IMG/VR virus record: IMGVR_UViG_2563366928_000010
Source of the DNA: a virus
Lineage: Duplodnaviria > Heunggongvirae > Uroviricota > Caudoviricetes
DNA length: 21,036 nt
Direction: 5' to 3' (one strand)
Part shown: in pieces, positions 829 to 7,516 of the stretch
Numbering within the stretch: position 1 is the first letter of the stretch
How the letters are laid out: each line of letters opens with the position of its first letter
The notes under the pieces: model-generated
Told to the model about the DNA's origin: nothing
Databases searched by the model: none
Seen by the model: only the letters and a program-made list of their open reading frames with translations
Program-made: the position numbers and the translations under genes

Positions 829-2789
829 TCATGCCGCAGCATCCGCGTTGTTCACTTCCACCTTCACACTGTCAATCAGCAGCGTATATGTCGCCGCCTT
901 TGATATGCCTGTCAGTTGCAGTTTGTCCGCCGCCCCTGATGCCGGAGATTTCACCAGTGTGAACGGCGTCCCCCGTTTCTCATCCAGTACCGGCGTCACC
1001 TGAATGCTGTTGTTTCCGGCAAACTCAAAAGCCAGTGTGTGCCATCCGTTATCAAAGACCCCGAACGTATCCAGCTTCGCATTCGGCTTCTTGTGGTGCA
1101 TCGCGTTCAGGTTCGTCGCATCCGTCTGCAGGAAGAAGGACATCAGCATGTCGTTGCCTTCCTCTGCCAGCGTCACTCCCTCCGGCAGGGACGACAACTG
1201 CCAGTAAATGCCCAGGGCAAACTGATTCGGCACCAGTGAACCCGGCAACTTAAACCGTACGCTCACACGTCCCCCCTTCTTCAGTAACTCCACTCCCTGT
1301 CCGGCTGCATCATGCTCCAGAAACCAGATGTGGTTTTCCGGTTTATTCAGTTGCAGGGCCTTACCTCCCGTAGCCCCCGCATCACTGACCACCGCTTCAG
1401 CAATGTTTTTGTTAACATTGTCTCCGCTCGCCGGTTTGTGATAATAGCGCCAGCCCTGTGATGCCAGGTCTTCGCCGGACGCCAGCAGACTCATCAGGGT
1501 TCGGTTACTGACCGGGGCTTCCGGCTCTCTCTCCGTACCTTCACCGGAAGGTCCGGTGGGCTTCACCGTATCAGGCTGTTTTCCGGTAATGAATTCAGCG
1601 TTTCTCCCGGCATGCACAAGAATCGCCGTTGCCAGACGGTCGGAAATAATCCCACGACGTGCCCATGATCCAAAATGCGTTTTACGGTCAGCCGTCGTCC
1701 AGGTTTTGGCGTCCGTTCGACCACCGGCTACGTAATACCCAATATCCGCAACATCCGGATCTTCTGACGGCTCGTTGGTACCCACATTTCGCCCGTTTTC
1801 ATCCGTCATAAACGGCACAAAGAAGATTTTTTTTGCGGATTTCGTCTTGTATGCACCATACACCGCATCGTATTGCGAAGAATAAGTCTGCTTCCAGTAG
1901 TAGGTCGTGTCGCCACAAATCCAGGGAACTGATGACGGAGAGCCCCCGAGACACTGACCTCCGAATTCCGACAGGTCAGAACGATATTTTTCCACCATGG
2001 AATCAAACAGCCCCGGCTGAGTGGCGTATGCACCCTGTTTCAAATCAAACTCGCCCTGCATCCAGACCACTGCAAGCAGAATATTTTTAGGGTTGGCCTT
2101 CAGTGCGGCCTGAGTACGGGTAAGCAGGTCCTTGTACAGTGGCTTATCTACACCCCAGCGTGCCGAGGTCTCGCTTGCGCCGGTGGATTCGCTGAAGGTA
2201 CCTTCATCGCCCGCCAAAAATGCAGAACCACCACGGCAGCACGGAACCAGAAGAATACCGGCATTCGCCGGAATAAACGGCAACAATTTCTTCGCGATAT
2301 GTAATCCCTGCCCCACGCATCCATACTGAGCTGCGCTGGCTTTCGGGTGTGAAAACTTACTCAAATCCTGAACATCATGCAGGCAGTGGTCCGCAGGAAT
2401 AATGTCATTGTAGTTACAGGACGCACCACCCGGCGTGACAGTGCTGCGACGCGCCAGCTGTTTAATACGCGGGTCCGGACGGTCATATGTCTCCGGCAGC
2501 GGAAGCCCTTCACCATACGCCATACCGTTTGACTGCCCGGCCAGGGCAACAACAAAGTAATACTCCGGGTTGCTGGTGGTGCTGATAACTGCGCCTTCTC
2601 CATCCGACGGCTTCACCACCACAGGTGTGGTGACATCACCTTCCGCCGCAATGGCCTGCATCAGGGTATAAGGCGTGATGGCCACCGGACTGCAAATGGC
2701 TGCCACCCCTCCTTCAGTTTTTGTGTCAGTCGTTTCGCAAGGTCTGACGGCGATGCCGCCCTGACCACGTCATAGTGTTTAAATGCCAT
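829..2789 (-). pseudogene. nanS-p: Prophage sialate O-acetylesterase NanS-p-like gene (SASA/SGNH esterase core), apparently disrupted by a single-base frameshift near codon 30
   Basis: Strong SD GGGAGG + ATG at 2789 gives MAFKHYDVVRAASPSDLAKRLTQKLKEGWQPF then stops at 2661-2663 after 42 codons; 625-codon ORF 829..2706 continues in another frame with no ATG (only GTG with adjacent SD); GQSNG esterase motif in the long frame. Confidence 0.6.
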
Positions 2790-2982
2790 GAATCCTCCCG
2801 GCCGGGATAATATTGTGAGTAAAATAAGGAGCGGGCTGAAGTCCGGAAGTTACAGGACAATGGCAGAAGAGAGACGACAGCCCGCAATTCGAAAAAGACC
2901 GCGCAGTTGCGCAGAGTGATTACTATGGGGTATTATTCGTCAGCTGAAATATTACTTCACGTTTTATTGTTTATTCCTTGCC

Positions 2983-3387: not shown

Positions 3388-3816
3388 TCACGGTTTAAAA
3401 TCCAGCACTCCATTGTGAAATACTTTATATACTTCCGGAGACGGCGGAACTGGTATATCAGCATGCTTCACCGCATTCATCGCTTCACGACATAAATCGG
3501 GGTCTCCACCTTCTCTTTTAACCTGTAGCAGAAGACCATTCGGGGCCATATACATTCTCAGTGAACACTCTTTTCCTGAATACTTACTCGCATCCTTTAA
3601 CTGTTCTTCTATGGCTTTCCTGACCTGAATGGCATACTGCCTGATTTCTTCACTGGCATCAGGGGTACGTTCCGATGAGCTCAAATTTTGCGACTTTATT
3701 AATTTATCTGAGTGATACAGAGAAGCATCATAATTATTTGTCGATACATCTTTTGTGCAGCCAGTTGTCAGACTGGCTAATATCAAAACAAGAACTGGTA
3801 CAGCACGGCAATACAT
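3388..3816 (-). CDS. Lipoprotein with TolA C-terminal (domain III)-like domain, 142 aa
   Basis: ATG at 3816 with GGAGA SD 8 nt upstream; signal peptide MYCRAVPVLVLILASLTTGC with lipobox; C-terminal half SKYSGKECSLRMYMAPNGLLLQVKREGGDPDLCREAMNAVKHADIPVPPSPEVYKVFHNGVLDFKP resembles recalled E. coli TolA C-terminus (...SYAGKTCTLRIKLAPDGMLLDIKPEGGDPALCQAAL...VYEVFKNAPLDFKP). Confidence 0.7.
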   Translation of the reverse strand: MYCRAVPVLVLILASLTTGCTKDVSTNNYDASLYHSDKLIKSQNLSSSERTPDASEEIRQYAIQVRKAIEEQLKDASKYSGKECSLRMYMAPNGLLLQVKREGGDPDLCREAMNAVKHADIPVPPSPEVYKVFHNGVLDFKP

Positions 3817-4094: not shown

Positions 4095-4171
4095 TGGACC
4101 GCCATCGAGGACTCGAACCCCGCGCAGCCAGCTTCGAAGGCTGGCGCTCTATCCCGATGAGCTAATGGCGG
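4095..4171 (-). tRNA. tRNA-Arg (anticodon UCG)
   Basis: 77 nt cloverleaf CCGCCAT..GCTC/GAGC D-stem..anticodon stem CCAGC/GCTGG with loop CTTCGAA..T-loop TTCGAGT..ATGGCGG-T-CCA, folded by hand. Confidence 0.75.
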
Positions 4172-4180
4172 TATGTGATA

Positions 4181-4256
4181 TGGTGGCCCTTGCTGGATTT
4201 GAACCAGCGACCTGGCGATTATGAGTCGCTCGCTCTCACCACTGAGCTAAAGGGCC
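4181..4256 (-). tRNA. tRNA with CAU anticodon, ileX/ileZ-like (tRNA-Ile2 lysidine type; would score as tRNA-Met in automated tools)
   Basis: GGCCCTTTAGCTCAGTGGTGAGAGCGAGCGACTCATAATCGCCAGGTCGCTGGTTCAAATCCAGCAAGGGCCACCA; closer to recalled E. coli ileX than to elongator tRNA-Met. Confidence 0.8.
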
Positions 4257-4296: not shown

Positions 4297-4555
4297 TCAT
4301 CCGTTCTGACTGACTAAATCCTGAACTTCCCGAACCGTCTGCTCAAAACGTTCAGTCTCCAGCTCAACGCCTGTAGCACGACGGCCCAGTGCCAGTGCAG
4401 CTTTAACTGTTGAACCTGACCCCATAAAAAAATCTGCAACCAGGTCACCCGGACGACTGCTTGCGCTGATTATCTGCTGCAGCATTTCTGCCGGTTTTTC
4501 GCACGGATGTTTCCCGGGATAGAACTGCACCGGTTTATGCGTCCAGACATCGGTA
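4297..4555 (-). pseudogene. C-terminal remnant of a beta-class N6A/N4C DNA methyltransferase, ending at the IS1 boundary
   Basis: Translation ...HKPVQFYPGKHPCEKPAEMLQQIISASSRPGDLVADFFMGSGSTVKAALALGRRATGVELE carries motif-I-like FxGSGST and KP motif; reading frame upstream of IS1 hits a stop within about 50 codons and shows no catalytic DPPY region. Confidence 0.5.
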
Positions 4556-4570
4556 GGTAATGACTCCAAC

Positions 4571-5074
4571 TTATTGATAGTGTTTTATGTTCAGATAATG
4601 CCCGATGACTTTGTCATGCAGCTCCACCGATTTTGAGAACGACAGCAACTTCCGTCCCAGCCGTGCCAGGTGCTGCCTCAGATTCAGGTTATGCCGCTCA
4701 ATTCGCTGCGTATATCGCTTGCTGATTACGTGCAGCTTTCCCTTCAGGCGGGATTCATACAGCGGCCAGCCATCCGTCATCCATATCACCACGTCAAAGG
4801 GTGACAGCAGGCTCATAAGACGCCCCAGCGTCGCCATAGTGCGTTCACCGAATACGTGCGCAACAACCGTCTTCCGGAGACTGTCATACGCGTAAAACAG
4901 CCAGCGCTGGCGCGATTTAGCCCCGACATAGCCCCACTGTTCGTCCATTTCCGCGCAGACGATGACGTCACTGCCCGGCTGTATGCGCGAGGTTACCGAC
5001 TGCGGCCTGAGTTTTTTAAGTGACGTAAAATCGTGTTGAGGCCAACGCCCATAATGCGGGCAGTTGCCCGGCAT
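4571..5074 (-). CDS. insB: IS1 transposase InsB (expressed as InsAB' by frameshift)
   Basis: 167 aa ORF overlapping insA 3' end in the -1 frame, as in IS1. Confidence 0.85.
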
Positions 5075-5268
5075 CCAACGCCATTCATGGCCATATCAAT
5101 GATTTTCTGGTGCGTACCGGGTTGAGAAGCGGTGTAAGTGAACTGCAGTTGCCATGTTTTACGGCAGTGAGAGCAGAGATAGCGCTGATGTCCGGCGGTG
5201 CTTTTGCCGTTACGCACCACCCCGTCAGTAGCTGAACAGGAGGGACAGCTGATAGAAACAGAAGCCAC
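4993..5268 (-). CDS. insA: IS1 transposase InsA
   Basis: 91 aa [43 protein letters not shown]... Zn-finger InsA. Confidence 0.9.
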
Positions 5269-5479: not shown

Positions 5480-5861
5480 TTTACGTACGTAAACTACTAA
5501 ATGATATTTGTGAGAATGCCACCGAGTGTTCAAAACACCACCACAAATACATAAGAAAACTTCAACAAATAACCAATGAATAATTTCCGATGTTATTTTT
5601 AGGTTGTTTAAATTAAGCCAAAAAATTATAGGGCGCTTATAAATAAGTGTCATTAATATAAATCAGCTAATAGATTTATTTTTGTTCAAACAAGAGCCAT
5701 GAATAGGATTAGATAGAAAAGGTTCAGATAAAAATAGAGATCTACGTCACAAATTAAATGAGAAACTAAAACTTACATCTTGAAATAATCACATTGATTA
5801 GATGAATATTTATCGCGCAGTGACATCATTTTTTTATAATAGTTCAAAAAAAGGGCGTACA
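5480..5861 (+). promoter_or_regulatory. AT-rich upstream regulatory region of the porin gene (exact promoter not resolved)
   Basis: About 380 bp strongly AT-rich non-coding DNA immediately upstream of the porin start, typical of enterobacterial porin control regions. Confidence 0.35.
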
Positions 5862-6944
5862 ATGAAAAAATTAACAGTGGCAATTTCTGCTGTAGCTGCA
5901 TCAGTACTGATGGCGATGTCTGCTCAGGCAGCTGAAATTTATAATAAAGACAGTAACAAGCTGGATCTATACGGGAAAGTTAATGCCAAGCACTACTTCT
6001 CCTCTAATGATGCAGATGATGGTGATACTACTTATGCTCGTCTTGGCTTCAAAGGTGAAACCCAAATCAACGATCAACTGACTGGTTTCGGTCAGTGGGA
6101 ATATGACTTCAAAGGCAACCGTGCTGAATCTCAAGGTTCTTCCAAAGACAAAACCCGTCTTGCATTTGCAGGCCTGAAATTTGGTGATTACGGCTCAATC
6201 GATTACGGTCGTAACTACGGTGTAGCATACGACATCGGTGCGTGGACTGACGTTCTGCCAGAATTCGGTGGTGATACCTGGACCCAGACAGATGTGTTCA
6301 TGACTGGCCGCACTACTGGTGTTGCAACTTATCGTAACAACGACTTCTTTGGTCTGGTCGATGGCCTGAACTTTGCTGCTCAGTATCAGGGTAAAAATGA
6401 CCGCACTGACGTAACTGAAGCCAATGGTGATGGTTTCGGTTTCTCCACTACTTATGAGTATGAAGGATTCGGCGTGGGTGCAACCTATGCTAAATCAGAT
6501 CGCACTGACGGTCAGGTCGCCTATGGTAAGAGCAAATTCAATGCCTCCGGCAAAAATGCGGAAGTATGGGCTGCAGGCCTGAAATATGATGCGAACAATA
6601 TCTATCTGGCTACCACATATTCTGAAACTCAGAATATGACCGTTTTTGGTAATAACCATATTGCAAACAAAGCACAAAACTTTGAAGCAGTAGCACAATA
6701 TCAGTTTGACTTCGGTCTGCGCCCATCTGTTGCTTACCTTCAGTCAAAAGGTAAAGACCTTGGTGTTCATGGTGACCGAGACTTAGTCAAGTATGTCGAT
6801 GTCGGTGCTACTTACTACTTTAATAAAAACATGTCCACTTTTGTTGATTACAAAATCAACTTAATTGACGATAGTAAGTTTACCAAAACAGCTGGTATTG
6901 ATACCGACGACATCGTCGCTGTAGGTCTGGTTTATCAGTTCTAA
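5862..6944 (+). CDS. nmpC: Outer-membrane general porin, NmpC/Lc/OmpC family (phage-borne)
   Basis: ATG at 5862 with AAGGG SD; signal peptide [23 protein letters not shown]; [16 protein letters not shown]... and C-terminal ...VGLVYQF beta-barrel terminus; matches recalled NmpC/Lc porins. Confidence 0.85.
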
Positions 6945-7132: not shown

Positions 7133-7516
7133 TCAATTAGAATTATTAGCAACGATATCCATATCTAACCGGATATCTAATGCCATTAACATCCCTTCAA
7201 TTATGCCCTCAGCCTTCTGTAACCTTTTCCCGATATAACCATCCGAGCAGCAATGCTTACTTGCCAGTGACATGAATGTCATACCACATACATAATAATC
7301 TACTAATAAATCGTGTAAATCGCTGTTGTTCTTTTTCAGACGGGCCATGCACCCGCAAATGATCATCGCGTCATCGTCACAACATTGCGGGCGAGATTTT
7401 ACTTTTGAAGGAATTAATCCCTTAAAACCGGCAGCAATGGACGACCAGGTCACATCCTCATGATTATTTGCCGCCCATGCGCCCCAGCGTTCAAGAACCA
7501 TCTGAATATCACGCAT
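7133..7516 (-). CDS. Q: Late-gene antiterminator Q (phage 82 / DLP12 QuuD type)
   Basis: 127 aa from ATG at 7516: [60 protein letters not shown]... with Cys-rich Zn-binding region; matches recalled DLP12 YbcQ/QuuD. Confidence 0.8.

Follow-up and report, generated by a model that had tools for sequence, protein, structure and literature searches.

The nanS-p gene of a lambdoid Escherichia coli prophage was found to be interrupted in codon 33 by the lack of a single G, which separates the start of the gene from the frame encoding its esterase. The sequence comparisons described below argue for a genuine, heritable one-nucleotide deletion which arose a single time on an AF14-like haplotype marked by a rare T at gene nucleotide 1061 (T1061) and was subsequently distributed by recombination. 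We give this reading a probability of about 0.85. E. coli KTE24 is represented by the draft scaffold KE136710.1, and the stretch of DNA analyzed (21,036 nt, called the window throughout) showed 100% identity to it across the compared 12,661 nt. Judged from its sequence, the affected gene encodes a sialate 9-O-acetylesterase of the NanS-p type. The gene family is well characterised, and the locus represents one of its disrupted alleles; it is no new kind of feature.

The interrupted reading frame

The 5' part of the gene contained the following features.

2794–2799, minus strand: native nanS-p Shine-Dalgarno (SD) sequence GGGAGG, followed by ATTC and then ATG (4-nt spacing)
2661–2789, minus strand: 5' fragment open reading frame of 42 codons, from ATG at 2789-2787 to TGA at 2663-2661
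2693, minus strand: lesion, a 1-nt deletion, with a single G in place of the GG of all intact homologs (alignments)
829–2706, minus strand: open esterase frame from the list of open reading frames, with SASA, DUF6645, 3PT5 and 6YP6 matches
2659–2663, minus strand: TGATG, in which the stop of the 42-codon frame overlaps an in-frame ATG (2661-2659)

The original prediction had described a GGGAGG sequence and an ATG at 2789 which open a 42-codon frame ending at 2663-2661. Both signals and the frame were present, and an anti-SD duplex scan yielded approximately -10 kcal/mol for GGGAGG at 2799-2794. The predicted 625-codon esterase frame with its GQSN motif was also recovered (625 codons counted from GTG 2706, 610 codons from ATG 2661, TGA stop at 831-829). 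The additional claim that this frame possesses no ATG of its own had to be corrected, since an in-frame ATG is located at 2661-2659, just past the overlap of the two frames. The ATG within TGATG corresponds to Met44 of the intact protein and begins the annotated 610-aa product.

The lesion was placed by alignment to four intact annotated homologs (AF14, GN06667, CFSAN067215 and O104:H4 FDAARGOS_348). Each of them was annotated with a single CDS of 1962 nt (653 aa), named "SASA family carbohydrate esterase" or "DUF6645 domain-containing protein" in RefSeq. From the same start to the same stop, 1961 nt were counted in the window. At the junction, CCATTTGGCAGTCC of the homologs corresponds to CCATTTGCAGTCC in the window, where codon 33 (GGC, Gly33) has lost one G of its GG doublet. 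A megablast search against 5,426 complete E. coli genomes gave 363 records with a near-full-length match, and the best matches covered 2302 nt with a query of 2301 nt. That a single base had been lost from an otherwise continuous NanS-p frame, as suspected, was directly visible in the homolog alignment, and the location of the loss, previously estimated at 2690-2700 and near codon 30, was refined to the single G at 2693 in codon 33. Putting back the missing G restored a protein of 653 aa with Pfam matches to DUF1737 (3-50), SASA (83-274) and DUF6645 (503-616). Because one restored G gives the complete fused protein, the window allele was assigned as a disrupted allele of a member gene of this family.

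Domain content and consequences of the break

Two domains were located in the esterase frame, both of them unbroken in the deletion allele.

1618–2574, minus strand: NanS-like SGNH/SASA catalytic domain (alignment to 3PT5, NanS/YjhS, E = 2e-117, residues 30-348 of the 610-aa product)
847–1401, minus strand: C-terminal lectin-like jelly-roll domain (alignment to 6YP6, the NanS-p C-terminal domain, E = 1e-60)

Using the SGNH block definitions of PMC10462455, block I was found as GQSN (2538-2527), its catalytic Ser being encoded at 2532-2530, and the His of block IV was kept (RKTH). Pfam matches were obtained for SASA (E = 6e-9) and for the core of DUF6645 at 943-1284 (E = 2e-43). The locus thereby contains the SASA/SGNH domain with the GQSN Ser and the block IV His as well as the lectin-like jelly-roll domain of a NanS-p protein. 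The third hallmark, an N-terminal DUF1737 fused in frame to the esterase, is interrupted, as the frame is broken at codon 33.

For gp84/NanS-p of phage phi24B, DUF1737 (residues 2-57) was described as a capsid-decoration domain on the basis of cryo-EM and proteomics in a 2026 preprint (bioRxiv 10.64898/2026.04.10.717836). According to the same work, a hexamer of DUF1737 sits on the central hexon of each T=9 facet, Tyr42 in a loop serves as the anchor, and the catalytic part was proposed to be released later by cleavage near residue 57 of gp84. The 42-aa open reading frame of the window matched only positions 1-30 of the 53 positions of the DUF1737 Pfam profile (E = 3.8e-11). Alignment with an intact homolog and with phi24B gp84 assigned its residues 1-32 to native DUF1737 and its residues 33-42 (AVRWPSRLIP) to out-of-frame sequence. 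Compared with gp84, 31 of the first 32 residues of the protein matched, with divergence after Gly33-Ser34, and Tyr41 aligned as the equivalent of the Tyr42 anchor. As the frameshift at codon 33 precedes Tyr41, the anchor loop is lost; judged by its position, the last beta-strand of DUF1737 is probably lost as well. The complete DUF1737 fold of a standalone capsid-decoration protein was not present in the 42-aa product, in which the Tyr "tooth" of the anchor loop is missing. Ribosomes starting at the native SD and ATG would produce a peptide of 42 residues, made up of 32 native DUF1737 residues and 10 junk residues. The full-length, capsid-tethered esterase of 653 aa cannot be made from the deletion allele.

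Occurrence of the deletion in genomes and metagenomes

The distribution of the deletion was determined with an 80-nt query centred on the lesion and designed so that 99% identity could be attained by gap-free matches only. Matches were obtained at 811 places, which belonged to 555 of the 5,426 complete E. coli genomes; none of these matches was gap-free, and the deletion was consequently absent from all of these places. IMG/VR and metagenome contigs were searched with a pattern accepting either allele. All 71 IMG/VR viral contigs carried GG and none the deletion, while the 38 metagenome contigs were divided into 36 with GG and 2 with the deletion. Neither allele was found in a collection of species-representative genomes, where the allele family is missing from the E. 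coli representative. A two-frame arrangement conserved among homologs, which the original prediction had named as an observation that would speak against it, was thus not seen: the places in the complete genomes and the viral contigs all lacked the deletion.

The first of the two metagenome contigs (ENA contig ERZ1741957 NODE_1424 = OATL01001424.1) contained the identical deletion at 42x coverage; its upstream region was unlike that of the window and included a PmrD-like gene. The second contig with the identical deletion, OIEU01002468.1, was collinear with the window. An exact-sequence look-up identified the 610-aa product as EOU74989.1, "hypothetical protein WEG_01752" of E. coli KTE24. A further assembly (TPA assembly GCA_025553995.1, here L009) was considered as a third witness. 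It carries T1061, and it turned out to be uninformative with respect to the deletion, its contig starting 1 nt before the Met44 ATG.

The full gene was taken from all 71 loci holding it, which resulted in 49 unique alleles. Their alignment revealed one marker.

1730, minus strand: rare marker T1061 (Val354), where most alleles carry G (Gly354)

T1061 was found in 4 of the 49 unique alleles, namely in three deletion haplotypes and in the intact AF14 allele, and none of the 45 G1061 alleles was deleted (Fisher exact p = 2.2e-4).

Genuine mutation versus assembly artefact

Two alternatives had been offered in the original prediction, a mutation that truly inactivates the gene and an error of sequencing or assembly. 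The two metagenome contigs, the linkage to T1061 and the lack of any other single-base indel versus the closest complete genome favor the genuine mutation. The term "inactivating" is only partly supported: the full-length capsid-tethered protein is abolished, and the catalytic body is intact behind TGATG.

We are aware of the fact that the window comes from a draft assembly, which taken by itself leaves room for an artefact. KTE24 might truly possess GG and an intact 653-aa gene, with the base lost during draft assembly of a paralog-rich repeat region or through a sequencing error. The deletion occurred in none of the complete-genome matches, and the window starts at a run of Ns in the KTE24 scaffold, a gap approximately 830 nt downstream of the nanS-p stop in a paralog-rich region. 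Moreover, the lesion lies at the boundary where the paralog-conserved 5' segment ends and divergence begins, which represents a branch point of the assembly graph, and the L009 assembly breaks 39 nt downstream of the lesion. Against an artefact, the identical deletion was present in two independent contigs of SPAdes type from other datasets, one of them at the coverage given above, and the lesion site is a GG doublet without a long homopolymer. The rare T1061 marker, 964 nt off, was linked to the deletion in all three deletion haplotypes. The deletion is therefore unlikely to be an assembly error, as an artefact would not be expected to follow a marker 964 nt away.

A globally error-prone assembly was ruled out by base-by-base comparison with AF14 (NZ_OZ546925.1), the closest complete genome. 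Between 300 and 21036 only five SNPs and the lesion indel were found, and the remaining indels all fell between 164 and 293, where the DUF826 gene shows a divergent patch. As the lesion is the sole 1-nt indel versus AF14 over approximately 20.7 kb outside the DUF826 patch, the window assembly is not indel-prone. The two metagenome samples could share one cohort or one host, and their mosaic haplotypes could be assembly chimeras instead of biological recombinants; nevertheless, even with chimeras, k-mers spanning the deletion must exist in those independent read sets. Taken together, we regard loss of the base in sequencing or assembly as improbable.

Origin of the deletion

The three deletion haplotypes differed in their distance to intact alleles. 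The window (KTE24) allele equals the intact AF14 allele minus one G, with 0 SNPs. Haplotype L008 showed 4 SNPs (nt 21, 24, 1659 and 1953) and haplotype L116 showed 12 SNPs, ten of them within a 53-nt patch at 1491-1543. All variants separating the deletion haplotypes were also found in intact alleles, and they were clustered or located at the gene edges. The upstream flank of L008 was common to approximately 35 intact loci.

Because all three deletion haplotypes share the rare T1061, the most parsimonious interpretation is one deletion event on an AF14-like haplotype, the flanks of which were then shuffled by recombination. The deletion would have arisen once on the haplotype bearing T1061, and homologous recombination among co-resident nanS-p paralogs would have spread it. 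Isolate KTE24 and two gut metagenomes contain it today, on at least three sequence backgrounds and in two prophage contexts.

Alternatively, a real deletion may have arisen two or three times independently at a mutational hot spot. This was considered as two of the three deletion haplotypes possess a nearly identical intact relative: next to the window allele and AF14, L008 corresponds to the intact allele L056 minus G plus 2 SNPs and has the flanks of L056. The site is further located within short repeats (TGGCAG..TGGCAG) and a quasi-palindrome GCCATTTGGC. However, L008 carries the rare T at nt 1061, whereas L056, its nearest intact relative, carries G, and recurrence is disfavored by the fact that T1061 is shared by all deletion alleles and that deletions were lacking from the G1061 alleles. 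A GG doublet is no known slippage hot spot, and inspection of the sequence revealed no palindrome perfected by the deletion. Recurrent deletion is accordingly rated as quite improbable.

Prophage context and decay of nanS-p copies

A lambdoid prophage inserted next to mlrA harbors the nanS-p gene of the window among its late genes. The neighbours of nanS-p comprised Q, a phage porin gene, an IS1 inserted in a methyltransferase remnant, two tRNAs (4095-4256) and a gene for a TolA-domain lipoprotein, and DUF1378, DUF826 and holin genes followed downstream. The position between Q and the tRNAs on one side and the lysis genes on the other agreed with a lambdoid late-region location, as seen in annotated homologous regions. 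Related genomes contained 3-4 nanS-p-like places each (megablast).

Among the 49 unique alleles, 14 were disrupted, by approximately 8 independent lesions including the codon-33 deletion. The lesions are listed by their position in the gene.

Gene nt 97: codon-33 1-nt deletion
Gene nt 163: other 1-nt deletion
Codon 78: TAC-to-TAA nonsense mutation
Gene nt 957: one A lost from an A8 run, in several haplotypes
Gene nt 983: deletion
Gene nt 822, 1121 and 1836: further lesions

IS-disrupted nanS-p alleles were reported in Stx2a phages (PMC10462455, sequence 16 / CTR3). In view of the many disrupted alleles found here and the IS-interrupted ones in Stx2a phages, loss of single nanS-p copies is evidently common. 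We regard the codon-33 deletion as an ordinary instance of the decay that affects redundant accessory genes of prophages.

Translation of the esterase body

Start signals available to the esterase frame were analyzed with the anti-SD duplex scan. Only two strong sites were obtained, the native SD described above and the following internal one.

2704–2714, minus strand: SD-like AAGGAGGG (2714-2707) abutting GTG 2706-2704, duplex energy -12.2 kcal/mol

GTG 2706-2704 is the earliest possible start of the esterase frame. An SD spacer of 1 nt is too short for efficient initiation. As the spacer behind AAGGAGGG measures only 1 nt, GTG 2706 is unlikely as an efficient start, and the scan detected no SD ahead of GTG 2685 or ATG 2661. 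Efficient independent initiation in the esterase frame was rejected on these grounds. With the other starts lacking SD or spacing, only termination-reinitiation at TGATG stays plausible. Overlapping UGAUG junctions are a classical layout for translational coupling and reinitiation. Because ATG 2661 overlaps the upstream stop, a free 610-aa esterase could plausibly be synthesized at a low level from Met44, and weak re-initiation at TGATG giving this putative product is possible from the arrangement of the codons. The intact catalytic and lectin-like domains would thus be silent, or would be made at a low level by reinitiation. The putative 610-aa product would be a free esterase resembling the proteolytically released enzyme and chromosomal NanS. 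At its N-terminus it would be approximately 13 residues longer than the esterase thought to be cleaved from the phi24B capsid.

A more far-reaching interpretation would regard the deletion as a tolerated uncoupling allele, in which the capsid-binding head is lost and the free 610-aa esterase is delivered by translational coupling at TGATG. We consider this doubtful. If true, a virion decoration protein would have been converted to a purely lysogen-serving enzyme. Several observations are consistent with such an uncoupling and constitute no evidence for it. The allele lasted long enough to reach three haplotypes and two prophage contexts, the 610-codon body was free of secondary lesions in each of these haplotypes, and 3 of the approximately 8 independent lesions fell into the first 12% of the gene, an enrichment which was not significant.

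It is scarcely conceivable that the two-frame layout is functional by design, be it through a programmed -1 frameshift or as natural standalone DUF1737 and esterase genes: standalone DUF1737 proteins form the majority of the family (2,528 of approximately 3,000; bioRxiv 10.64898/2026.04.10.717836) and stop and start overlap in TGATG, but nearly all homologs consist of a single frame, a slippery heptamer of the X XXY YYZ type was not seen at CCATTTGCA, the RNA of the junction folded no better than shuffled sequence (z = -0.35), and the 42-aa product covers 30 of the 53 DUF1737 profile positions with the anchor Tyr missing. A programmed frameshift was rejected on account of the single-frame homologs, the missing heptamer and the junction fold, and the two-frame layout was shared by none of the 811 places in complete genomes, by 0 of 71 viral contigs and by 2 of 38 metagenome contigs.

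Comparison with known sialate esterases

The gene resembles the NanS-p genes of phages 933W (L0105/z1466) and phi24B (vb_24B_21, gp84) in its DUF1737, SASA/SGNH and C-terminal lectin-like content. It also shares with phi24B nanS-p its place in the late region, where Q and phage tRNAs precede the gene and DUF1378, DUF826 and holin genes follow it. Unlike in Stx-phage NanS-p, the frame is broken at codon 33, which truncates the capsid-binding domain and uncouples it from the esterase. Moreover, the prophage analyzed here lacks stx. Its gene belongs to a different NanS-p subtype: across the 5' 60%, nucleotide identity with the Stx-phage copies amounts to approximately 77%.

The catalytic domain was aligned end to end with chromosomal NanS (YjhS, 3PT5), with the GQSN Ser and the block IV His conserved. 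The putative 610-aa restart product would, like NanS, be devoid of DUF1737. In contrast to the gene described here, NanS has no C-terminal lectin-like domain and is not phage-borne. Chromosomal NanS has its own export signal, whereas the putative 610-aa product lacks both a signal peptide and an SD of its own.

The IS-disrupted nanS-p of Stx2a phages and the other broken alleles found in this work are, like the window allele, natural loss-of-integrity alleles of E. coli prophages. Those other alleles show C-terminal IS insertions, slippage in the A-run at nt 957, a codon 78 converted to a stop and further lesions. The window allele differs from them by a 1-nt deletion in the N-terminal domain which spares all catalytic and carbohydrate-binding sequence.

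Implications

The locus fits an annotation as a frameshifted nanS-p pseudogene, with EOU74989.1 (610 aa, KTE24) as its remnant. Beyond annotation, the consequences are small. The allele separates the anchor from the enzyme and in this respect offers a natural experiment for the claim that DUF1737 acts as a capsid anchor. If the prophage is inducible, tethering to the capsid for the benefit of the phage and supply of esterase for the lysogen could be told apart. Finally, the deletion adds to the evidence for frequent loss of nanS-p copies in E. coli strains with several paralogs. Such copy loss matters wherever growth on mucin sialic acids is correlated with nanS-p copy number.

Sequence context of the nanS-p lesion

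The following features of the esterase gene and of a matching contig were considered:
2686-2706, minus strand: short repeats around the nanS-p lesion
1827-1834, minus strand: A8 run inside the esterase gene (gene nt 957-964)
1-2754 of contig L009 (DAJMGG010000139.1): TPA assembly GCA_025553995.1

The nanS-p lesion is surrounded by short repeats. The motif TGGCAG occurs twice at a spacing of 11 nt, the intact alleles reading TGGCAGCCATTTGGCAG, and GCCATTTGGC forms a quasi-palindrome; both features were recognized by eye. Inspection by eye revealed no mechanism by which these repeats or the quasi-palindrome would be converted into a 1-nt deletion.

Single-base loss was also observed at the A8 run. 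Here, 4 unique alleles carried by other contigs (L016, L076, L081, and L103) lack one A, leading to a stop at codon 328. These losses could mark a slippage hot spot or could reflect homopolymer sequencing errors in the assemblies concerned.

Contig L009 encodes a 610-aa sequence identical to that of the window, including the rare T1061 variant. Its first base lies exactly 1 nt ahead of the Met44 ATG. The contig probably breaks where the 5' segment common to all nanS-p paralogs ends.

Left edge of the window

A run of 3,026 Ns, corresponding to positions 12664-15689 of L007 and falling within the holin gene of the KTE24 scaffold KE136710.1, adjoins window position 1. As this scaffold gap directly abuts the window, the source is a draft assembly. 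Compared to AF14, the closest complete E. coli genome, a highly divergent patch was found at 164-293, with 28 SNPs and a net length difference of 24 nt. It is located within the DUF826 gene and matches the 246-nt versus 270-nt DUF826 variants found among relatives. The patch looks like a recombination mosaic.

Accessory genes and IS1 insertion

The region beyond nanS-p contains the following features:
3388-3816, minus strand: 142-aa ORF that combines a Pfam TolA domain with an N-terminus of lipoprotein type (LTTGC)
4095-4171 and 4181-4256, minus strand: two phage tRNA genes
4297-4569: remnant of a truncated phage DNA methyltransferase gene
4571-5268, minus-strand ORFs: IS1 element with InsA and InsB frames
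5802-6944, plus strand: prophage-encoded OmpC-family porin gene
7133-7516, minus strand: Q antiterminator gene

The porin gene adjoins the Q gene and is annotated as ompC in the RefSeq entries of AF14 and of the related strain B2.3. The two tRNAs were assigned by ARAGORN as tRNA-Arg(TCG) and tRNA-Met(CAT), whereas the latter is labeled tRNA-Ile in RefSeq. Presumably, the CAT tRNA would read AUA once modified with lysidine, by analogy to phage phi24B. In O104:H4 and CFSAN067215 a third tRNA is found at this site.

The prophage-borne 142-aa ORF, flanked by the tRNAs on one side and nanS-p on the other, carries the RefSeq name “cell envelope integrity protein TolA.” Its product is a candidate that could serve as a decoy or exclusion factor against Tol-dependent phages or colicins. 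The IS1 element was inserted into the phage DNA methyltransferase gene; this insertion is also present in AF14 and is missing from B2.3 and other close relatives. It is a further sign of prophage decay.
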